Below, piece by piece: positions 1,067 to 62,962 of a stretch of 64,000 bases of DNA (positions are counted from its first letter, which is position 1; each line of letters begins with the position of its first letter). The position numbers and the translations under genes were made by a program. Under the pieces are notes generated by a model. The model made no database searches. It saw only the letters and a program-made list of their open reading frames with translations, and had not been told where the DNA came from. The DNA is from an uncultured Pseudomonadales bacterium (GTDB taxonomy: Bacteria; Patescibacteriota; Microgenomatia; UBA1400; CAYNFZ01): positions 6,569 to 70,568 of the forward strand of contig CAYNMS010000001.1 of NCBI GenBank assembly GCA_964398525.1. The letters are read 5' to 3'.

Positions 1067-1129
1067 GCTCTTTAGCAAGTGAAGAGAAAGATAGCGAGTT
1101 CTTATCGTAATTAGACTTTATCTTTTTAC

Positions 1130-4050
<2,921 letters not shown>

Positions 4051-4327
4051 AGTCAAGATTAAAGTCTGATCTAATAAGACCTACTGGTTTAAAGTTTAAA
4101 AAAACCTTAAACATTTATCTTCTCTTCACTTGTTAAAGAACAAATACTGCCGGGGTATTCCCTCTTGCAGATCCCGTACCGACTCTCTTTTGCTAATCTC
4201 TCTGTAGCCGGACAGCTACTCAATTAGACAATTTATCAAGTCGTCTTGTGGGATTAATGTGCTTCGAGTTTAAAGACTCGCGAAAGCCAATCTTTCAAGG
4301 CTTTAGCCAATCTTCAATTCTCGTTTG

Positions 4328-4400
4328 TGGACCTGAGCGGGCTCGAACCGCTTACCTCGTCATTGCAAATGACGCGCTCTACCAGCTGAGCTACAGGCCC
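4328..4400 (-). tRNA. tRNA-Ala (anticodon TGC)
   Basis: Reverse complement GGGCCTGTAGCTCAGCTGGTAGAGCGCGTCATTTGCAATGACGAGGTAAGCGGTTCGAGCCCGCTCAGGTCCA folds as a cloverleaf with anticodon loop TTTGCAA. It lies about 280 nt upstream of the 23S 5' end. CCA not encoded. Confidence 0.9.
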
Positions 4401-6237: not shown

Positions 6238-7905
6238 TCACTTTTCTCTCACATCCTCTGGCAATTCCTTCACTTCATACTTAGCCAATATCTTTCGTAT
6301 TTGATCTAATGTTTTCTCATTCCATTTACTGGACAAAAGCCAACTAAGATCTACTAAATCTATCGGATCAAAAGCAACTCCCAATTCATTCAACACGTTA
6401 CTCAATTCTTCCATGTTTTCAGCCCCAAGTAACTCTTGTTTTCCGTCTGATTCGGCTTCTTTTTCCTCTTTTGTATCCATCGGTATCTCCAGTGCACCAT
6501 CTTCCTTTGATTCCTCACTGCTCTCAGCTTCACCACCAAGCTCTACTTGATCCTGTTCTAGCGACGAAGCCGCTTCTTCGGCAACTTCTTCACTTTCTAT
6601 TTTTTCTCCTTCAAGTAATTTCTTCACCTGAGCTAGACCATCCATTAATTCGCTTTCTCCATCACCTTTCACCCTCTCTGCCAAAGTATCCAACCAACCA
6701 ACCAAAGCTTCCATATCAACCCCCTCCAAACCCCCTCGCATTATTTTTTGAACAAAAATTCGCAAACTAACTTTTTCATATCTTTCTAATCCGTCCAAGC
6801 CATCTATCTCCTTTACGCCTTCCCCTAATCGATCAATCAATTCCTTTTTTTTCAATTCCTCAAACTCTTTTTCTTGCTTAATCACCTCTGCCTCACTCAA
6901 ATCCACACCATCCTCCATCCTTTCCTTCAATTGCTTGAGTGCAAACAATACCTCTATCACACTCTTTTCATCTACACCGTACGTTTCATTCTCAATTCTC
7001 CTTATCCAATCATTAACATCACCAATGTTGGCCGTCTCTGGGCTGGTTAGCAGTTGTTTAATCTGGTTCACTCCAATTTCACCAAAAGCCTCGTGCATTT
7101 CTCTTGCACTCTCAATCCCTTGCTTACTCACTCGCCCCCACACTCTTTCTGGATCTTTTTTCCATTTATCCCATTTTTGCTTCGCCTTCTCAACCAACCC
7201 TTTGCCTTCCGATGCTGTTTCTTTGGCTTTGTCAACAACACTTGAAGTTTTTTGCTCCCACCCTGACCTTAAATCTATGGCTTCCTCCACAACAGGTGTC
7301 GTTTTTTCCAGCTGTCTCTTGATTACTAACAAATCTCCAGCTTTTTTACCCCCTGCCTCTCCCGCTTGTTTCATCAAATCGTCCACAATTGCATTTACCG
7401 ACTCAATCGTCTGACTTGTTGCCTCACCTTTTTCCAACACCGCTCTGACCAAATTTCTCTGCTCAGCCAAACCAATACTCTTAGTAGCACCTAAAGCCTG
7501 CTTCTTAATTCTTGCTGCTAATTCATCAGGACTCGGTTGTTTTTCCTCTTGTGCCTTCAATTTCCCTAACTCTTGATCCGCCCCTTCCTTCCACTTCTGC
7601 CAATTTTTCTCTTTAAACTCTTTCGCTTCCTCGCTCAGTTCACCTACCGAATCTATCAATTTCCCCTGATCATCACTTTTTTTAAAACTTGCTTCCACCT
7701 GGTAATCCTGATTCCTCGGCGGCTCGCCCTTGTTTATTAGCTTTCTCACTACCCTCCCCCACAAACCTTCTTTTGGTGCTTCTGGTGTCGTTGTCTCTCT
7801 TGCAGGCGCTAAACCAGCTTCTTGCAATTCTCCCACCTTTTTACTCAACTCCTTTGCACTAGGTGGAACTCCCTCTACCGCATGCTTTATTACATCAATA
7901 TCCAT
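6238..7905 (-). CDS. large acidic E/K-rich low-complexity protein (555 aa), probably coiled-coil or disordered
   Basis: Uninterrupted 1.67-kb ORF on the coding-dense strand. Composition dominated by E, K, L, G. No TM or signal peptide. No enzyme motif recognised. Confidence 0.55.
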   Translation of the reverse strand: MDIDVIKHAVEGVPPSAKELSKKVGELQEAGLAPARETTTPEAPKEGLWGRVVRKLINKGEPPRNQDYQVEASFKKSDDQGKLIDSVGELSEEAKEFKEKNWQKWKEGADQELGKLKAQEEKQPSPDELAARIKKQALGATKSIGLAEQRNLVRAVLEKGEATSQTIESVNAIVDDLMKQAGEAGGKKAGDLLVIKRQLEKTTPVVEEAIDLRSGWEQKTSSVVDKAKETASEGKGLVEKAKQKWDKWKKDPERVWGRVSKQGIESAREMHEAFGEIGVNQIKQLLTSPETANIGDVNDWIRRIENETYGVDEKSVIEVLFALKQLKERMEDGVDLSEAEVIKQEKEFEELKKKELIDRLGEGVKEIDGLDGLERYEKVSLRIFVQKIMRGGLEGVDMEALVGWLDTLAERVKGDGESELMDGLAQVKKLLEGEKIESEEVAEEAASSLEQDQVELGGEAESSEESKEDGALEIPMDTKEEKEAESDGKQELLGAENMEELSNVLNELGVAFDPIDLVDLSWLLSSKWNEKTLDQIRKILAKYEVKELPEDVREK

Positions 7906-12659: not shown

Positions 12660-12719
12660 AATCCTGTTTATGAATATTGATTTCTAGAAAGAAACATTCT
12701 CCACTCACACATCTTCTTG

Positions 12720-12793
12720 TGGGTGAGCCAGGAATCGAACCTGGGACCTCTATCTTATCAGGATAGCGCTCTAACCGACTGAGCTACTCACCC
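12720..12793 (-). tRNA. tRNA-Ile (anticodon GAT)
   Basis: Reverse complement GGGTGAGTAGCTCAGTCGGTTAGAGCGCTATCCTGATAAGATAGAGGTCCCAGGTTCGATTCCTGGCTCACCCA. Cloverleaf with loop CTGATAA. It lies in the middle of protein genes, far from both rRNAs. Confidence 0.9.
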
Positions 12794-19540: not shown

Positions 19541-21044
<1,504 letters not shown>

Positions 21045-55197: not shown

Positions 55198-57156
55198 TCA
55201 ACGCTTGTTTGTCTTACTCACTCGTCTAGTGTTTTTAACCGCAACGCTTTTCCTTACCTTCTTGGCAGCCACTCTGGCTTTAGGTACTCCGACCAATTTT
55301 TCAAAATCCTCTCCATCAATCGTCTCTATTTTAACCAACTCCTCACTTACCCTATCCAGGATTTTCTTGTTTTTCTTCAGTATCGCCCTTGCCAATTCTT
55401 GTGCTTCTGACAGCAGCTTTTGCATTTCCTTATCTACCCTAGACTGAATCTCATCCGATATCTTGGTTGGTTCCATCACCGCCCGACCCCACTCTGTCGT
55501 CTCATACTGAGGCCCAAAATAAACCGGCCCCAGTCCACTCATTCCATAATCCACCACCATTGCTCTAGCTATCCTTGTGGCCCGACTTATATCACTCGAA
55601 GCCCCAGCTGTAAGTTCACCAAAAATCAGCTCCTCTGCTTCTCGACCTCCCATCATCACTGCCATCATTTCCATCAGTTCACTCTTAGTTTGCTGGTATT
55701 TATCCTGCTCTGGGGGCGTCATTGTAAAACCCAAAGCTTTACCTCTGGACACAATACTAATCCTGTGGACCGCATCCGCATGTGGACTAAAGTGAGCTAC
55801 CAGTGCATGTCCAGCCTCATGATAAGCCGTCATCTTTCTATCATGCTCGCTCTGAAGTCTCTTTTTGCTCGGTCCCAATTTCACCTTGGTTGCCGCTTCT
55901 TCCAAATCTTCCCAAGTTATTTCTTTACGTTCTTCTCTCGCGGTCAAGATTGCCGCCTCATTAAGCATGTTCTCCAGATCCGCTCCCGAAAAGCCCACCG
56001 TTCTTCTGGCAGCCCGATCCCAATCCATGTTTTTACTCACGGGTTTACCCAAACCATGGATTTTTAAGACTCTTTTTCTCTCGTCCAAATCAGGCAAATC
56101 TATCTGCACTCTCCTGTCAAATCTTCCCGGTCTAGTCAACGCCGGATCCAACAGATCTCCTCTGTTTGTCGCCGCCAACACCATCACGCTGTCATTTCTG
56201 GTAAACCCATCCATTTCCACCAAGATCTGATTCAAAGTTTGCTCTCTTTCGTCATGACCTCCAGCCGCTCCCAAACCCCTCATTCTTCCAATCGCATCAA
56301 TCTCATCGATAAAAATAATCGAAGGCGCGTTTTTCTTGGCCGTCTCAAATAAATCTCGGACTCTGCTGGCACCCACTCCCACCAACATTTCCATAAACTC
56401 ACTTCCAGCCATTGAGAAAAACGGCACTCCAGCTTCCCCTGCCACTGCCCGAGCTAATAAAGTTTTACCTGTTCCCGCAGGCCCAACCAACAACACGCCT
56501 TTTGGAGTACGCGCCCCCACTTTAGTGTATTTCTTGGGGTGTTTCAAAAAATCAACTACTTCTTCTAATTCTTTCTTAGCTTCATCCACTCCCCCCACAT
56601 CTTTAAAGGTCACATCCTGCTTGCCCTTGCTAAATAATTTTGCCTTACTTCTACCAAACCCCAAAATCCCGTCTTGTGCTCCTCTGGCTTGTCTTATCAA
56701 AAATAGGAAAAATACTCCCATCAACACCAAAGGCAGCAATGTTCCCAAAATATCCACCCACATCCTGCTCATCGATTGATCCGCTACCTCAAGCTCTACA
56801 TCGGCTACTTCCACTCCTGCGTTTTGCAGAATTTCCGTAAACGAACCCTGATCTTCAATCCTAGAATTAACTGGTTGTTCTTGATCCGCATAAAACACTC
56901 TTAGCGTTCTTCCTTCAATCAAAATTCGCTCCACCTTACCCGCTTTCACATCTGCTACTACCTCAGACAAAGGTACTTCCTCTCCGTTGCCCATTCCTCC
57001 AAAAAGCGACACAATAAACGGCACAAATAATAACAAAATCAGCAGCCACATCAACGCTCTGCGAAAATTAAACTTAAATTCCATCTCAATCTTTTTTAGA
57101 GGCTTTTTGCCTTTGGAGTCTGGTTTATCCTGCTTTTTTTCAGTTTTCTTCGCCAT
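55198..57156 (-). CDS. ftsH: ATP-dependent zinc metalloprotease FtsH
   Basis: Two N-terminal TM, AAA+ Walker [19 protein letters not shown], second region of homology, zinc site HEAGHAL. Confidence 0.95.
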
Positions 57157-57257
57157 AACGAGGGTATTCTAACCGATACTAACACTATTTACCAGGTCTA
57201 TTCTGGCACTCCTTCCCCCCAACTGCTTGCACCCAATTGTTCCTACTATCTAGTAGC

Positions 57258-57599
57258 TTATCTAACTATTGTACCCTTCGGCACCTCCCGACTAATCTCA
57301 ATTGGAATAGGCTTCTCTTGTGTGTCGCTCATCAACATCATTCCCTGACTCTCTTCTCCTCCCATTTTCTTGGGTTCCAGGTTCACCACAAACACACCCT
57401 TTTTGCCTACCATTTCCTCCGGCGAATAAACCCCTTTCACTCCGGCAAATATCACTCTTTCTCCCAACTCCTCACCTAAATCAACCGTTAGCTTTAATAA
57501 TTTACGGCTCCATTCCGGCTCTTCACACGCCACTACCTCCCCCACTCTCAACTCCAATTTCAAAAAATCTTCAAACTTAATCATGTCTTTCATCATCAA
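57258..57599 (-). CDS. tRNA-binding domain protein (CsaA/Myf/EMAP-II-like OB fold)
   Basis: DFLKLELRVGEVVACEE...KLLKLTVDLGEE...VVNLEPKKMGGEESQGMML matches the MetRS C-terminal/CsaA tRNA-binding domain pattern. Immediately downstream of trpS. Confidence 0.7.
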   Translation of the reverse strand: MMMKDMIKFEDFLKLELRVGEVVACEEPEWSRKLLKLTVDLGEELGERVIFAGVKGVYSPEEMVGKKGVFVVNLEPKKMGGEESQGMMLMSDTQEKPIPIEISREVPKGTIVR

Positions 57600-57608
57600 C
57601 TCCTTTTA

Positions 57609-58622
57609 TTAACGATTTAACTTATTCCTCTCCCCAATCACCTCATAAACTTCTTTAAGTGTCTCGCCTGCCAACTTCCTCGCTCTATCTGCCCCCTCCG
57701 CCAAAATCTCCCTCACTCGATCCACGTCTTCCTCTAACTCTTTCCTTCTTTGTCTCATGGGTTCAAATAGTTTCTGGTGCGCTTCATATAACTTTTGCTT
57801 CACTTCCACATCCCCAACTTTCCCTTCTCTGTACCTTACCTTCAAGTCTTCCACCTCATTCTCCCGCTCATTCATCAAATCGTGGTAGATAAACACCGGA
57901 TTCCCTTCTACTCTACCGGGGTCAGTCGGGTGAATTCTGGCTGGATCTGTAAAACTGCCCATTATCTGTTTTCGCACCATTTCAGGTTCAACAAAAATCC
58001 CAATCGTATTCCCCAAACTCTTACTCATTTTCCGCTCCCCATCCGTTCCTACAATCTTCCCCGTTTCTTTGCTAATCATCGGCTCTGGCAACGAAAACAC
58101 TTGTGATTTATAAGTCCGGTTAAAGTTTTCTGCAATATCTCGGGCTAGTTCTATATGCTGCCTCTGGTCTTCACCCACCGGCACTCCATCTGGCTTGTAC
58201 GCCAAAATATCCGCTGCCATCAATATTGGGTAATTAAATAGCCCCATATTAATCGCATCTCGCCTCTCCCCCTTCTCCAATTTATCTTTAAACGCATGCA
58301 TCCGTTTCATCTGTCCATACGACACATAGTTAGCCAGTACCACCGCCAACTGAGACTGTTCCGGTACATCCGACTGCCTAAAAAACACACACTTTTCCGG
58401 ATCAAGCCCCAAGGCTAAATAATCTAAAACCACCCCCACAATGTTTTTCTCCAATTCATCTTTATTCTGAACCGTCGTCAATGCGTGCAAATCTGCTACA
58501 AAATAATAAGTCTCTTCGATACTGTCTTGTAGCTCAATATGAGGCTTCACCGCCCCAAAATAATTCCCAATATGCAACTCGCTCCCACTTGGTGTAATCC
58601 CTGCTAGTACTCTTTTAAACAT
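57609..58622 (-). CDS. trpS: tryptophan--tRNA ligase
   Basis: Class I HIGH-type motif (TPSGSELHIGNYFG), KMSKS, and the Trp-specific GxDQ region (PVGEDQRQHIEL). Confidence 0.9.
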   Translation of the reverse strand: MFKRVLAGITPSGSELHIGNYFGAVKPHIELQDSIEETYYFVADLHALTTVQNKDELEKNIVGVVLDYLALGLDPEKCVFFRQSDVPEQSQLAVVLANYVSYGQMKRMHAFKDKLEKGERRDAINMGLFNYPILMAADILAYKPDGVPVGEDQRQHIELARDIAENFNRTYKSQVFSLPEPMISKETGKIVGTDGERKMSKSLGNTIGIFVEPEMVRKQIMGSFTDPARIHPTDPGRVEGNPVFIYHDLMNERENEVEDLKVRYREGKVGDVEVKQKLYEAHQKLFEPMRQRRKELEEDVDRVREILAEGADRARKLAGETLKEVYEVIGERNKLNR

Positions 58623-58687
58623 GTTTTCCTTTTATTTCTGATTTTATATCATAACTTAATTTCATGTCCCAACTCATTCAATCAACC

Positions 58688-59881
58688 CTAAGTTCTATCC
58701 TTCAATAGATTTTCATATATATTCTCCACATCTTTATCCCCTCTACCGGACAAATTCACCACTACCACTTCATCATCCAGCCTCTTTACTAATTTCGACA
58801 CATAAGCTAAAGCATGTGCCGATTCCAACGCTGGAATAATACCTTCATTTCTTGATAATTGCACCACCGCAATTACCGCTTCCTTATCGTCAATCCCTTC
58901 CACCTCCAACCGGCCAATATCATAAAGGTACGACAATTCAGGACTCACTCCCGGATAATCTAAACCAGATGCTGCCGAATAGGATTCAGTCACTTCGCCA
59001 TTTTCATCTACCAAAACACGGCATCGAAATCCATGAATATCTCCAGGTTTTCCCTTCATTAACGACATTCCGTGTTTCTTTGTGCTCACTCCTCGTCCAG
59101 CCGGTTCAACGGCCACTAGTTTTACTTTTTCGTCTCGAATAAACGAGTAAAATAATCCCAGAGCATTCGATCCTCCTCCGACACAAGCCACGACATAATC
59201 CGGTAACTGACCCAATTTCTGCAGTAACTCAGTTTTTACCTCCTTGCCAATCACAGCTTGAAAATCTCTAACCATAAGAGGATACGGATCTGGTCCCACT
59301 GCCGATCCCAACATATAAAAACTATTCCCATCATTAACATATGCCTCCAAGGCTTCATCTATCGCGTCCTTTAACGTCCTCTGTCCTCGAGTCACGGTCT
59401 GCACACTTGCTCCCAGCAGTTTCATTCGATAAACATTCATTTTTTGATTTTTTACATCTCTTGCCCCCATATAAATGGTTGCTTTCATCCCGAACTTGGC
59501 CGCCACTGTCGCAACCGCCACCCCGTGTTGACCCGCTCCCGTTTCGGCAATTAATCGTTTTTTTCTCAAAAACTTAGCCACCAAAGCTTGTCCGACAGTG
59601 TTGTTTATCTTATGAGCTCCAGTATGATTTAGATCTTCTCGCTTTAAATACACCCTCGCTTTGCTATCTTTAGGGACTAAACTCGCTGCCTCATATAACA
59701 GGCTCGGCCTTCCAACAAATTCCCGATACAGTTTTTCCAATTCATTTTTGAACTTGTCATCATGTTTCAATCGAATGTATGTCTCTTTCAATTGACCTAA
59801 CTTTCTCTCCAAAATTGGCGGCACCAATCTTCCTCCATATTGACCAAATTTGCCATTTTCGTCTGGAAATGTATATCTCAT
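58688..59881 (-). CDS. trpB: tryptophan synthase beta chain, stand-alone (no adjacent trpA)
   Basis: PLP-lysine motif LNHTGAHKINN, GGGSNALG, GAGQHG. Start placed at 59881 (AAGGA 7 nt upstream). The track's ATG at 59920 sits directly on the terminator T-tract with no SD. Confidence 0.85.
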   Translation of the reverse strand: MRYTFPDENGKFGQYGGRLVPPILERKLGQLKETYIRLKHDDKFKNELEKLYREFVGRPSLLYEAASLVPKDSKARVYLKREDLNHTGAHKINNTVGQALVAKFLRKKRLIAETGAGQHGVAVATVAAKFGMKATIYMGARDVKNQKMNVYRMKLLGASVQTVTRGQRTLKDAIDEALEAYVNDGNSFYMLGSAVGPDPYPLMVRDFQAVIGKEVKTELLQKLGQLPDYVVACVGGGSNALGLFYSFIRDEKVKLVAVEPAGRGVSTKKHGMSLMKGKPGDIHGFRCRVLVDENGEVTESYSAASGLDYPGVSPELSYLYDIGRLEVEGIDDKEAVIAVVQLSRNEGIIPALESAHALAYVSKLVKRLDDEVVVVNLSGRGDKDVENIYENLLKDRT

Positions 59882-59920
59882 TTTTTTCCTTAATAACTTA
59901 TCAATAAAAATAAATGCCAT

Positions 59921-59942
59921 AAAAAAACCCGCCTTCGCGGGT
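59921..59942 (-). terminator. intrinsic terminator (AACCCGC-GAAG-GCGGGTT + T7) between the Trp-rich leader ORF and trpB; candidate attenuator
   Basis: GC-rich stem seen directly, followed on the minus transcript by TTTTTTT. 28 nt downstream of the leader ORF stop and 40 nt upstream of the trpB start. Confidence 0.5.
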
Positions 59943-59969
59943 TAAGTTTATTTCAACAAAAAAGCCGAC

Positions 59970-60035
59970 TTAAACTTGTCCGCGCCATAAAAGATACATC
60001 TGCCACCAATCTCTGGATAAAAGCTTATTCAACAT
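59970..60035 (-). CDS. 21-codon leader peptide with three Trp codons (MLNKLLSRDWWQMYLLWRGQV), a candidate trp attenuation leader
   Basis: ATG at 60035 is preceded by GGGAGG with 7-nt spacing. TGG TGG tandem at 60003..60008 and a third TGG at 59985..59987, all in frame, ending in TAA. It overlaps the last codons of the TrpR-like gene. Confidence 0.5.
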   Translation of the reverse strand: MLNKLLSRDWWQMYLLWRGQV

Positions 60036-60282
60036 TCTTAAACCTCCCTAGCTGCAATTCTCTTGACCCTCTTGTCACCGTCGCAACTCCAATTTCCAAG
60101 TCTTGAGCAATCTGTCTCTGTTTATCACCGAATTTAAGTCGCCTGACAATCTCCAATCTCTTTGAAACTTGTTCCAACTCACCAGGAGTCAATATTCCCG
60201 TCAAAAAACTCTCCATCTCCTCTCGAGTCTGAATTCTAAGCATGTGGCCTATCAACTGATTCAACAATTGTTTTGTTTTCAT
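60025..60282 (-). CDS. TrpR-like DNA-binding protein (YerC/YecD family)
   Basis: 85 aa. The C-terminal helix-turn-helix QRQIAQDLEIGVATVTRGSRELQ matches the Trp-repressor/YerC fold signature (..IA...GVS.ATITRVSR.L). Confidence 0.65.
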   Translation of the reverse strand: MKTKQLLNQLIGHMLRIQTREEMESFLTGILTPGELEQVSKRLEIVRRLKFGDKQRQIAQDLEIGVATVTRGSRELQLGRFKNVE

Positions 60283-60295
60283 ATACTAGTACAGA

Positions 60296-60323
60296 AGTAT
60301 ACCATGTTCTCTTCAAAAATCAA
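60296..60323 (-). promoter_or_regulatory. candidate promoter for the TrpR-like/leader/trpB/trpS operon (-35 TTGATT / 16 nt / -10 TATACT)
   Basis: Hexamers read on the minus strand. TSS would be about 7 nt upstream of the ATG, giving a near-leaderless mRNA. By eye only. Confidence 0.3.
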
Positions 60324-60344
60324 TCCTGCCCAGTCACTGATATC

Positions 60345-60373
60345 TTGAACCAAACCCCTTTGCCTGATAAAAT
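60345..60373 (+). promoter_or_regulatory. sigma70-type promoter for the tRNA(CAT) gene (-35 TTGAAC / 17 nt / -10 TAAAAT)
   Basis: Near-consensus hexamers with 17-nt spacer. Predicted TSS 2-4 nt before the tRNA 5' end. Confidence 0.45.
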
Positions 60374-60383
60374 ACCTCTTACG

Positions 60384-60456
60384 CGCGGGGTAGTGTACGG
60401 TAGCACGTGAGGCTCATAATCTCACAGACCAGGTTCAACTCCTGGCCCCGCAACCA
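60384..60456 (+). tRNA. tRNA-Met (anticodon CAT), initiator-like
   Basis: CGCGGGG...CCCCGCAACCA, the same ends as E. coli tRNA-fMet, with an unpaired C1 x A72 (the bacterial initiator hallmark). Anticodon loop CTCATAA. CCA encoded. The anticodon stem lacks the three consecutive G-C pairs of canonical initiators. Confidence 0.8.
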
Positions 60457-60463
60457 AGAAAAG

Positions 60464-60488
60464 ACCGACCTTCATAGTCGGTTTTTTT
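60464..60488 (+). terminator. rho-independent terminator after tRNA(CAT) no. 1 (ACCGAC-loop-GTCGGT + T7)
   Basis: 6-bp stem followed by TTTTTTT on +. Confidence 0.5.
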
Positions 60489-60599
60489 GCTTCTAAATCT
60501 ATCTCCTCGAATTTTTGCCTGCTTTAGCATCTGTTAAAATATCAACTACTAAAGCTCAAGTTGTGCTCATGTTGACTTGCCAAACAAAGCTTTAGTCAA

Positions 60600-60671
60600 G
60601 GCAGGGTAGCTCAATGGCGGAGCAGAGTCTTCATAAGGCTAAGGTTGTGGGTTCGAATCCCACCCCTGCTA
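60600..60671 (+). tRNA. tRNA with CAT anticodon (elongator tRNA-Met, or tRNA-Ile2 if lysidinylated)
   Basis: GGCAGGGTAGCTCAATGGCGGAGCAGAGTCTTCATAAGGCTAAGGTTGTGGGTTCGAATCCCACCCCTGCTA. Cloverleaf with loop TTCATAA, G1-U72 pair, 27-43 mismatch. No CCA encoded. Confidence 0.75.
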
Positions 60672-60677
60672 CAGTCT

Positions 60678-61067
60678 TCACCAAAACAACTCCACCCACT
60701 GGACCCACACCGGTTTTTCTTCCTCCACCTCTGGCTTTTCTATTCCCTGGTCAGCCACCATCACCTTTTCAATCAGTTCATCCGGTATCACCACCACCGC
60801 CTCTCCAGGCTTAACCAATCCTAGTTCCTCACGAATATACACTTCATCCGCACCCGGACTCTCTACTTTCCTTTTCTCTTCCTCCAAAGCCTCTTTTTCC
60901 TCAATCAACTTCACCACTTCCGCCTCTTCTTTTTCCACTCTCCCACCTACACTCAACAATTCCACCAGGTTTCCTAGAAGCGAAATGGTGAACATCAACC
61001 AAATACCCACAATCATCATTGCCCCGATCTTCTTTCTTGTAGTAAAATTGTTTGCACTTAAACTCAT
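60678..61067 (-). CDS. FtsB/DivIC-like septum-formation protein (N-terminal TM + coiled coil), tentative
   Basis: One TM (IGAMMIVGIWLMFTISLLG), then a Glu/Lys-rich heptad region (EKEEAEVVKLIEEKEALEEEKRK) and PGE... as in DivIC/FtsB. Size and architecture only. Confidence 0.35.
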   Translation of the reverse strand: MSLSANNFTTRKKIGAMMIVGIWLMFTISLLGNLVELLSVGGRVEKEEAEVVKLIEEKEALEEEKRKVESPGADEVYIREELGLVKPGEAVVVIPDELIEKVMVADQGIEKPEVEEEKPVWVQWVELFW

Positions 61068-61164
61068 AATATGTTATTATAAGCCTATTCTTTTGGCCTG
61101 GTTCTTGCCCCCCGACCACTAAGTCCGGCTTTGCTGCCATCATTATTAACTAGACTTAATTGTA

Positions 61165-62046
61165 ATGGAAAACCCCGATTCCGCCACTTCTCTTTCTGCC
61201 ACTCACCAACAATTCATCAAAAATCTCCGTGACAAAGGCCGAGCCAATGCCACCATTCTTGCCTATGGCAAAGATATTGACCAGCTAATTGAATTCGCCG
61301 CTCTCCAAAAAATCACCGCCCCTCAAGCTATTACCCCCAACTTAATTGAACAATTCAAAGCCCACCTCGAAGCAGAAGGCTACACTCCTAAATCTATCTC
61401 CAGAAAAATCAACTCTATCAAGTCGTATTTTCGTTTTCTCCGTTCCCAAAAACTAATCCAAGACAATCCAGCCAACGACATCTCTCATCCCAAAGTCGAA
61501 CTTACCCCACCCAGAATTCTCACCAAACTCGAATACCGCGCCCTTCGCGATGCTTGTCGTCGTGACGAACGCGTCAGCGCCATTGTCGAACTCCTGCTCC
61601 AAACCGGTATTCGTATTAGTGAGTTGGCCGGCCTTAATCTGGAAGATGTCGACGCTACCAATAAAAAGATCCACATCCGCTCCGAAGCCGATCATGAAGC
61701 TCGTTCCATTCCTCTCAATCAGCCTGCAGCCAAAGCCCTAGAGGAATACCTAAAGTATCGACCCAAAACCAATGCCAAAACCCTCTTTGTTACCAAAACC
61801 GGCCGACCATTCCTTATCAGAAACATTCGTGCTGCCATTGATCGCTACTTCCGTCTTGCCGGCATCACCAATGCCAAAGTCAACGACTTAAGACACACCT
61901 TCATCGCCGAGCAATTAGCCGCCGGCACCCCCCTAGTCTATGTCAGCAAACTTGTCGGCCACAAACGCCTGACCACTACCGAAAAATATCTCAAATTCCT
62001 CGATAACCGCATGGAGAAAAACGAAGTTCGCCTCCAGGAACTCTAA
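61165..62046 (+). CDS. tyrosine site-specific recombinase (XerC/XerD-like integrase)
   Basis: N-terminal SAM-like core-binding domain. Catalytic R (GIRISEL), H-x-x-R (DLRHTFIAEQL), second His (LVGHKRL) and nucleophile Tyr (TTEKYLKF). 293 aa. Codon usage is host-like. Confidence 0.85.
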   Translation: MENPDSATSLSATHQQFIKNLRDKGRANATILAYGKDIDQLIEFAALQKITAPQAITPNLIEQFKAHLEAEGYTPKSISRKINSIKSYFRFLRSQKLIQDNPANDISHPKVELTPPRILTKLEYRALRDACRRDERVSAIVELLLQTGIRISELAGLNLEDVDATNKKIHIRSEADHEARSIPLNQPAAKALEEYLKYRPKTNAKTLFVTKTGRPFLIRNIRAAIDRYFRLAGITNAKVNDLRHTFIAEQLAAGTPLVYVSKLVGHKRLTTTEKYLKFLDNRMEKNEVRLQEL

Positions 62047-62825: not shown

Positions 62826-62898
62826 GCGCGAGTAGCTCAATTGGCAGAGCTGTCGTCTTATACACGACTGGTTCCAGGTTCAAGTCCTGGCTCGCGCA
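62826..62898 (+). tRNA. tRNA-Ile (anticodon TAT; UAU decoding AUA)
   Basis: GCGCGAGTAGCTCAATTGGCAGAGCTGTCGTCTTATACACGACTGGTTCCAGGTTCAAGTCCTGGCTCGCGCA. All four stems are perfect (acceptor 7/7, D 4/4, anticodon 5/5, T 5/5). T-loop TTCAAGT. Anticodon loop CTTATAC. Confidence 0.8.
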
Positions 62899-62962
62899 CC
62901 TTTTAAAACGTCTTTTTCTCGCCTGGACCATCCAGGCAGAACAAGCCTAGCTTTTACACGTC

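Follow-up and report, generated by a model that had tools for sequence, protein, structure and literature searches.

The stretch of DNA analysed here, henceforth called the window, comprises 64 kb (64,000 nucleotides) from an uncultured member of the Patescibacteria, or Candidate Phyla Radiation (CPR), and corresponds to positions 6,569 to 70,568 of contig CAYNMS010000001.1 (GenBank assembly GCA_964398525.1). On its minus strand, between a TrpR-family gene and trpB, lies a short open reading frame (ORF) with three tryptophan (Trp) codons, followed by an intrinsic terminator; judged from its sequence, this element is likely to be a classical ribosome-mediated Trp attenuator of a trpR-like/leader/trpB/trpS/tRNA-binding operon. 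All features described below are on this strand and are given in window coordinates. The locus opens with a putative sigma-70-like promoter found by consensus scan (TTGATT-16 nt-TATACT with a TG extension; 60296..60323), which precedes the TrpR/YerC-like gene of 85 amino acids (60025..60282), recognized by the Pfam Trp_repressor model. The trpL-like leader ORF of 21 codons, MLNKLLSRDWWQMYLLWRGQV (59970..60035), ends in a TAA stop (59972..59970), and a Shine-Dalgarno sequence, GGGAGG (60043..60048), is placed 7 nt 5' of its ATG. The original prediction, made from the letters of the window, had correctly described this ORF with its GGGAGG-N7-ATG start and TAA stop, and had missed that the leader, beginning with its ATG, overlaps the last 11 nt of the TrpR-family gene, such that the Shine-Dalgarno sequence falls within the Gly-Arg codons of that coding sequence.

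Two of the three in-frame Trp codons, W10 and W11, are in tandem (60008..60003) and form the proposed stall site, while the third (59987..59985), together with the adjoining CGCGG (59984..59980), makes up what we call segment 2 (59980..59987), the candidate 5' strand of an antiterminator; the CGCGG lies 21 nt beyond the tandem pair (WW), with 8-12 nt left to the stop codon. From the stop codon a 26-nt spacer leads to the terminator, and in minimum free energy (MFE) folds a spacer hairpin, AAGUUUA...UAAACUU (59944..59977), joins segment 2 to segment 3. The terminator, AACCCGC-GAAG-GCGGGTT (59943..59926) with a run of seven T residues (59927..59921), occupies 59921..59943, and its stem has 7 pairs, 5 of them G-C, with a hairpin energy of -11.2 kcal/mol; the CCGCG of the 5' arm (59940..59936) is segment 3 and the 3' arm is segment 4. 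Thus, the GC-rich hairpin and U7 tract that had been noticed between leader and trpB are present, as is the predicted complementarity of the leader CGCGG to the CCGCG of the 5' arm.

The first gene downstream, trpB (58688..59881), encodes a tryptophan synthase beta chain of the TrpB1 type (NCBIfam TIGR00263, 537 bits against a cut-off of 392), the closest homologues of which share 60-69% identity with it and bear the names Pacebacteria, Microgenomates or ‘Patescibacteria group’. It probably starts at ATG 59881, with the Shine-Dalgarno sequence AAGGA, 39 nt past the T run and 89 nt from the end of the leader; a longer ORF opens at 59920, and the homologues start at the position matching 59881. 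The second gene is trpS (57609..58622), coding for tryptophan--tRNA ligase (TIGR00233, 314 bits against 177), and the two assignments that had been proposed for the regulated genes were therefore borne out. A gene with a tRNA-binding domain follows (57258..57599; Pfam tRNA_bind, E 1.9e-23), and then ftsH. The order of trpS and the tRNA-binding-domain gene is kept in three related loci (L082, L085, L088; the L-numbers are our labels for the loci of relatives), and in a fourth (L081) the domain is fused to TrpS; this gene order suggests that the tRNA-binding-domain gene probably belongs to the same operon as trpS.

Considered by itself, the window offers weak evidence for regulation. The original prediction had held that the Trp codons of the leader are far above background; the spaced motif TGGTGG-N15-TGG occurs 9 times on the G-rich minus strand against 1.1 expected, so that the motif alone is not special. 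All nine matches are on the minus strand, and G-rich motifs there hence need careful null models; the GC skew of the plus strand ranges from -0.2 to -0.7 over 57000-61500, this very strong compositional bias having been noted for the whole minus strand. In Rfam searches the best non-tRNA match was Trp_leader (RF00513), which extended over 59919..60014 of the minus strand at 23.9 bits (gathering threshold 41; E 0.007-0.02), was built on UUGGUGGC and the terminator, and left the first stem of the model unmatched. In five relatives the same model again gave the top non-tRNA match, at 24.5-29.9 bits, all below the cut-off of 41, and at the gathering threshold no leader family was found in the window or in the relatives. 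It is only the conservation of the element in other genomes that documents its existence beyond chance.

Two sets of relatives were used to examine this conservation. For set 1, TrpB homologues were taken from a protein database and their contigs fetched, the upstream DNA being unconstrained; 12 lineages had informative upstream sequence. For set 2, metagenomes were scanned with the pattern TGGTGG-N15-TGG-N20-50-ACCCGC-N3-9-GCGGGNTTTT, which gave 98 matches, of which 80 were fetched; about 30 were of the CPR type, and 23 of these were distinct. A scan of a genome collection with the TrpB protein returned only distant proteobacterial and Firmicute trpB loci, the universal NHTGAHKI motif having saturated the scan. 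In set 1, a short ORF with tandem Trp codons and an intrinsic terminator were found upstream of trpB in 8 of the 12 CPR lineages, the window included, and the expectation that the leader ORF and its tandem TGG would recur in related genomes was thus confirmed. The leader peptides include MLNSYTSISSWWSSRYLWQRG (L082), MTSSYTHTSFWWTGRYLWQCG (L085, a metagenome-assembled genome (MAG) of Pacebacteria), ...RFDWWKTIRKW (L095), MKLNTQL..WWNSLK (L099 and L203), ...NISWWTRSHW (L198, CPR3) and MKNIFLNSNQWWTSSLW (L202). The remaining four lineages, which have no WW leader, differ in what they carry instead: L200 (a Shapirobacteria MAG) has a single-Trp leader of the same architecture, L088 and L098 have a divergent T-box-like RNA in place of the leader, and L204 has only a TrpR-family gene and an operator, with neither leader nor terminator.

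In two of the relatives, L099 (2183-2520) and L203, an intact WW leader and terminator upstream of trpB are followed by a second terminator-like hairpin and then by a degenerate copy of the leader (..NWNCSRYLWQG..), which has lost the WW pair and its terminator; by its sequence, this tandem looks like an old attenuator replaced by a new one. The hits of set 2 outside the CPR type (L118, L123, L133, L178; L125, L128, L167; L101, L102, L138, L142, L163; L100, L107, L119, L121, L145, L162, L168) are other short WW ORFs with terminators, for example MNINQ(H/R)LIALWWR(N/K)TLLWAV, MTLFNLTNRWWRDFPNW, ..GWWF, and (WWY)n repeats such as YWWYWWYWWYWWYW; they probably serve other phyla as leaders for Trp or for Trp/Tyr.

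The genomic contexts of the leader bear directly on two alternative explanations. According to one, the hairpin and U7 tract are simply the terminator of the TrpR-family gene and the ORF is incidental, trpB-trpS being expressed separately or by leaky read-through under the repressor. A trpO-like site does overlap the promoter, L204 makes do with the TrpR-family gene and operator, and the ORF and fold statistics of the window are unremarkable, all of which would agree with such control by the repressor. However, L082 and L085 have no TrpR-family gene, and their leader comes directly after a TTGACA-N17-TA(G/C)AAT promoter; since leader and terminator persist there, the hairpin is not merely the terminator of that gene. 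The same combination without a preceding TrpR-family gene was seen in L198, and it also occurs in a group of set 2 that includes L124, where the leader is placed 3' of trpS and 5' of a gene for a ‘TrpB-like PLP (pyridoxal phosphate) enzyme’ of the TrpB2 type (NF009057, 654 bits). In addition, the T run and the trpB ATG are separated by just 39 nt, in which the consensus scan found no promoter-like site, and the complementarity of leader and terminator co-varies, as detailed below. Control by the repressor alone is, in our estimate, decidedly unlikely.

The other explanation denies the small ORF any sensing of Trp and gives it the main task of coupling translation, or allowing re-initiation, where the TrpR-family gene ends. 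The leader ATG indeed overlaps the upstream gene, by 11 nt in the window and in L144 and as ATGA in L143 and L148; but the leader is present without that gene in L082 and L085, and its end is separated from trpB by 89 nt that include a terminator, so that it cannot couple translation into trpB. We give this proposal hardly any credence. As for the attenuator, the CPR members of set 2 precede trpB-trpS, following a TrpR-family gene in L143, L148 and L144 as in the window; in L144 the leader, MLNKNTLSTFISLQWWSSSYLWRN, is homologous and lies upstream of trpS alone. One type of leader is thus found before three different Trp genes, which is strong functional evidence.

The second line of evidence is a competing structure. 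The pairing was scored by register-free duplex energies and by permutation of cognate against non-cognate arms; a single consensus antiterminator on a MAFFT alignment had been tried and was dropped, the pairing register varying among subgroups. In all 23 distinct members of set 2, the part of the leader that begins with the third TGG and ends at the stop codon was complementary to the 5' arm of its own terminator, often reaching into the loop, with duplex energies between -8.6 and -19.8 kcal/mol (n=23). Cognate arms paired better than non-cognate ones, such that only 3 of 20000 permutations matched the observed score, or 15 of 50000 when 16 clade representatives were used, although the sequences are mutually related and these counts are not true probabilities. 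Matched changes were observed on the two sides: a leader TGGCGG(G) goes with an arm ...CCCGCCA, CGTAG(C/T)GGGT with ACCCGCTACG, and TGCGG with CCGCA, just as the CGCGG of the window (59984..59980) goes with CCGCG (59940..59936). The innermost pair of the terminator also co-varies in the family, being C-G, U-A or A-U, while the core of the stem is fixed by the search pattern.

The cleanest evidence for the competing structure comes from four members that were obtained independently of the pattern and that keep the complementarity with unrelated terminator sequences. In L202, GAAGCAGAG in the leader faces CTCTGCTTC in the arm (9 bp, -15.3 kcal/mol), and in L200, CTGGGAGA faces TCTCCCAG (-16.9 kcal/mol), only 0.1% of shuffles being as good in either case; the corresponding pairs are GGGAG and CTCCC in L099a, and AAGCG and CGCTT in L198. 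The suggestion that the Trp-codon segment would engage in competing structures was thereby substantiated for the 23 members of set 2 and these four, with only 5 bp in the window. When the RNA of the window was folded as a nascent transcript without the 3' arm of the terminator, it adopted the CGCGG:CCGCG pairing, closing the spacer hairpin, at -19.1 kcal/mol, and comparable spacer hairpins were found in L082, L140 and L124. In the complete RNA the terminator was preferred (-22.2 kcal/mol), which means that the antiterminator would have to win kinetically. Attenuators rely on a kinetic order of this kind, and the same holds for the trp operon of Escherichia coli.

Several observations weigh against this interpretation. 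Since WW-N15-W and the terminator core were fixed by the scan pattern, they are not independent evidence in set 2, to which most members belong, and the relatedness of the sequences, mentioned above, also limits the permutation result. Within the window, the fold of the whole leader is not unusually stable (MFE z = -0.71 relative to shuffles), and the antiterminator, with its 5 bp (-10.2 kcal/mol), is the weakest of the family, 11% of shuffles being equal or better. There is also no convincing hairpin between segments 1 and 2 in the window, where only a weak GUG/CGC pairing is seen; without translation, the default would then be read-through, unlike in E. coli. By eye, L099a (AACTCTC with GGGAGTT) and L198 (ACTCGCT with AGCGAGT) seem to have a 1:2 pairing, and none was seen in L124. 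Lastly, if the stall occurred at the third Trp codon, the ribosome would itself hide segment 2 and termination would be favoured, so that the sensing model leaves this codon unexplained. It is better explained as a part of the pairing strand: in many members the third TGG pairs with a CCA in the arm or loop of the terminator.

The peptide itself raises another alternative, namely that the leader acts through its product and not only through its codons, by a TnaC-like arrest that senses free Trp, by a hold at the stop codon, or as a micropeptide acting in trans like peTrpL. In favour, a subfamily (L082, L085, L112, L124, L135, L140, L143 and others) conserves WW-x-G-(R/D)-(Y/F)-L-W-(R/Q), with the Gly encoded by all four GGN codons and the Leu by four (TTA, TTG, CTA, CTG), and this motif seems more conserved than is expected for a pure codon-counting leader; leader peptides with functions in trans are also known (PMC7298713). 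Nonetheless, the three-base periodicity is weak, the column entropy being 1.27, 1.21 and 1.38 bits at codon positions 1, 2 and 3, and because of the weakness of this test the arrest-peptide idea stays a minor rival. Moreover, the motif is absent from the pattern-independent members (WWTSSLW, WWTRSHW, WWKTIRKW, WWNSLK) and shifted in the window (WWQMYLLW), and the N-terminal portion of the leader varies from 4 to 13 codons across members. We therefore regard action through the peptide as very unlikely.

It is also conceivable that a factor acting in trans, either a TRAP-like protein or an uncharged tRNA as in T-boxes, decides between terminator and antiterminator in place of the ribosome. The spacers of the relatives are rich in UAG (L112, L140, L134, L127, L124, L143 and others; L112 has five TTAGNNN repeats), with 41 observed against 15.6 +/- 3.7 expected, a number that none of 2000 shuffles reached, and other CPR lineages have a T-box-like leader on the same operon. 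Yet the spacer of the window has zero UAG, which made the TRAP-like idea inapplicable here, and in the relatives the UAG triplets are unevenly spaced or recur every 7 nt, which differs from TRAP sites. A search of 59700..60500 found no match to the T-box model (Rfam RF00230) even at E <= 10, and the element of the window has neither T-box sequence nor Stem I. Furthermore, the conserved ORF, the Shine-Dalgarno sequence, the WW codons and the position of the stop codon relative to segment 2 are not required by a trans-acting factor, which we consider exceedingly improbable as the deciding agent. The UAG triplets could possibly provide a binding site for a protein, or out-of-frame stops that catch ribosomes after frameshifting at hungry Trp codons. 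That the ribosome-mediated attenuator is complemented by an extra sensor beyond codon counting, be it a nascent-chain arrest that responds to free Trp or lengthens the stay of the ribosome at the stop codon, or a TRAP-like RNA-binding CPR factor, appears very unlikely; the peptide motif and the UAG enrichment are both absent from the window copy and from the most divergent members.

The T-box-like RNAs deserve a description of their own. A conserved structured element precedes trpB-trpS in L088 (2150-2420; also in L089-L094) and a tRNA-Trp gene in L098 (1526-1772). It consists of about 65 nearly identical nt (CGGAGGCGAAACCGU..AGUCAGCAACGAGUGU..GCUCG.G.AGAAAGAG), followed by GGUGGUAC(C/A)G and a terminator, has a UGGA specifier-like site, and scored 22.8 bits on the Rfam T-box model, against a gathering threshold of 93, only when the region was searched alone. 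It probably represents a Trp T-box that has diverged too far for current models to recognize. In L098, the tRNA-Trp(CCA) gene (1815-1888) is flanked by the T-box-like leader and a WW-containing ORF, MKKRIQYYLNWWQGHFLWRLFLIPNSILLI (to 2000), which has no obvious terminator and has trpB-trpS downstream, so that tRNA-Trp itself appears to be under tRNA-Trp-sensing control there. Since related CPR lineages place this leader before the same operon, the operon would be a target of tRNA-Trp-dependent control.

Upstream of the attenuator, the TrpR-family protein matched the Pfam Trp_repressor model PF01371 (E 6.7e-17, 61.8 bits against a cut-off of 27) and remained below the cut-offs of both NCBIfam models, with 48.1 bits on TrpR (67.25 required) and 36.2 bits on YerC/YecD (42.2 required). 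The promoter ends 13 nt before its ATG, resulting in a very short 5' untranslated region with no Shine-Dalgarno sequence predicted for the mRNA; several CPR TrpR-family genes would in fact be translated from leaderless or near-leaderless mRNAs. The candidate operator, ACTTCT-GT-ACTAGT (60285..60298), overlaps the -10 box and the likely transcription start, and consists of one perfect ACTAGT hexamer and one 4/6 match. In relatives, two ACTAGT-like hexamers 8 bp apart directly precede the ATG of the TrpR-family gene and overlap the promoters; fuller operators are ACTAGTGAACTAGT in L143, ACTAGCGAACTAGT in L148 and ACTAGTACACTAGT in L202, while that of L204, ACTAGCATACTAGT, lies between the -35 and -10 boxes. 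The trp operator of E. coli is given as AACTAGTTAACTAGTAC in PMC11748629. From this resemblance we infer binding of the repressor, and a dual control by repressor and attenuator as in E. coli is likely. In L095, the Rfam group I intron model (RF00028) matched at 64.3 bits (1188-1389, minus strand) immediately 5' of the TrpR-family gene; the same contig has a tRNA gene at 12-83.

The anatomy of the sequence, its conservation, the Trp genes that accompany it and the matched variation of leader segment with terminator arm are direct observations, and the view that the element is a trpL-like, ribosome-mediated attenuator is supported by the conservation and the competing structure. From them we infer ribosome stalling, the timing of folding and read-through as follows. 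Transcription would begin at the promoter 5' of the TrpR-family gene, and translation of the leader would start from a GGGAGG site of its own, located within the 3'-terminal part of that gene. Under a shortage of charged tRNA-Trp, a ribosome would stall with W10 or W11 in its A site and, on the assumption that it protects some 12-15 nt beyond the A-site codon in the 3' direction, a stall at 60008..60003 would leave segment 2 (59987..59980) free to pair with CCGCG once the 5' arm of the terminator has been transcribed; the terminator would then not form, and the polymerase would enter trpB-trpS. When Trp is plentiful, the ribosome would reach the TAA (59972..59970) and cover segment 2, staying short of the terminator (59943 onward), and the AACCCGC/GCGGGTT hairpin with its U7 tract would form and stop transcription 39 nt before trpB. 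The TrpR-family protein, repressing the promoter at the trpO-like site, would probably provide a second, independent layer.

Comparison with the trp leader of E. coli (RF00513) reveals a common core: a short leader ORF in which two Trp codons adjoin, an intrinsic terminator following closely, a segment near the leader stop that can pair with the 5' arm of the terminator, a terminator more stable than the antiterminator, and, in relation to TrpR/trpO, a probable dual control through a TrpR-family repressor and an ACTAGT-type operator. It differs in that the Rfam score stays below gathering (23.9 against 41 bits), the third Trp codon lies inside the antiterminator strand, no clear 1:2 pause or anti-antiterminator hairpin exists, the leader overlaps a repressor gene that belongs to the same operon, and only trpB (indole salvage) and trpS are regulated, in a reduced-genome CPR host. 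The trpR-IGR-trpBA locus of Chlamydia trachomatis is similar in that the genome is reduced and trpR lies directly 5' of a salvage trpB with a regulatory intergenic region between them, and an attenuation logic that depends on Trp codons has been put forward there (PMC7755916). The annotated chlamydial TrpL, however, is 59 amino acids long, lacks Trp codons in tandem and is regarded as a poor attenuator, its cis leader being atypical and unvalidated, and attenuation is ascribed to a WWW motif in YtgCR, in trans (PMC7755916); the cis leader of the window, in contrast, has a WW pair, a clean terminator and a co-varying antiterminator.

Leader-peptide attenuators are also known before synthetase genes, namely pheST in gamma-proteobacteria and trpS and leuS in Streptomyces (PMC1262725). 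In those, as here, a leader peptide controls the synthetase cognate to the regulatory codons; the CPR element differs by its phylum, with no sequence relationship shown, and by the co-regulation of trpS with trpB or, in some relatives, the location of trpS upstream of the leader. The Trp T-box (RF00230) similarly targets trpS and trp genes and reads tRNA-Trp charging as terminator versus antiterminator, whereas the element of the window would sense it by translation of an ORF and not by direct binding of tRNA. In the open-access literature that was searched, no report of Trp leaders or of trpB/indole or T-box regulation in CPR/Patescibacteria was found. The element is thus previously unreported, and is new as a member and not as a mechanism.

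Two further observations concern other parts of the window. About 15 kb separate the 16S from the 23S rRNA gene, and tRNA-Ile(GAT) and tRNA-Ala(TGC) are scattered in between, with gaps of protein-coding length (1123-4053, 4327-4400, 12719-12793, 19541-21042), and a tRNA-Ile with the anticodon TAT is present at 62826-62900.

Patescibacteria, host-dependent and uncultured bacteria with tiny genomes, are a group about whose gene regulation, to our knowledge, almost nothing is known. The family described here, of about 30 distinct sequences, falls below the Trp_leader threshold and is therefore currently unannotated, which makes it a candidate for a new Rfam model. Related lineages solve this regulatory task in four different ways, by a leader with WW, by one with a single W, by a divergent T-box-like RNA or by the repressor only, and the family thereby also constitutes a compact natural test case. 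If the proposed attenuation is true, CPR bacteria would use a textbook mechanism in which transcription and translation must be tightly coupled, and would monitor charged tRNA-Trp; the sole retained step of Trp synthesis, from indole and serine by TrpB or TrpB2, would be co-regulated with Trp charging, a TrpR-type repressor apparently serving as the second layer.

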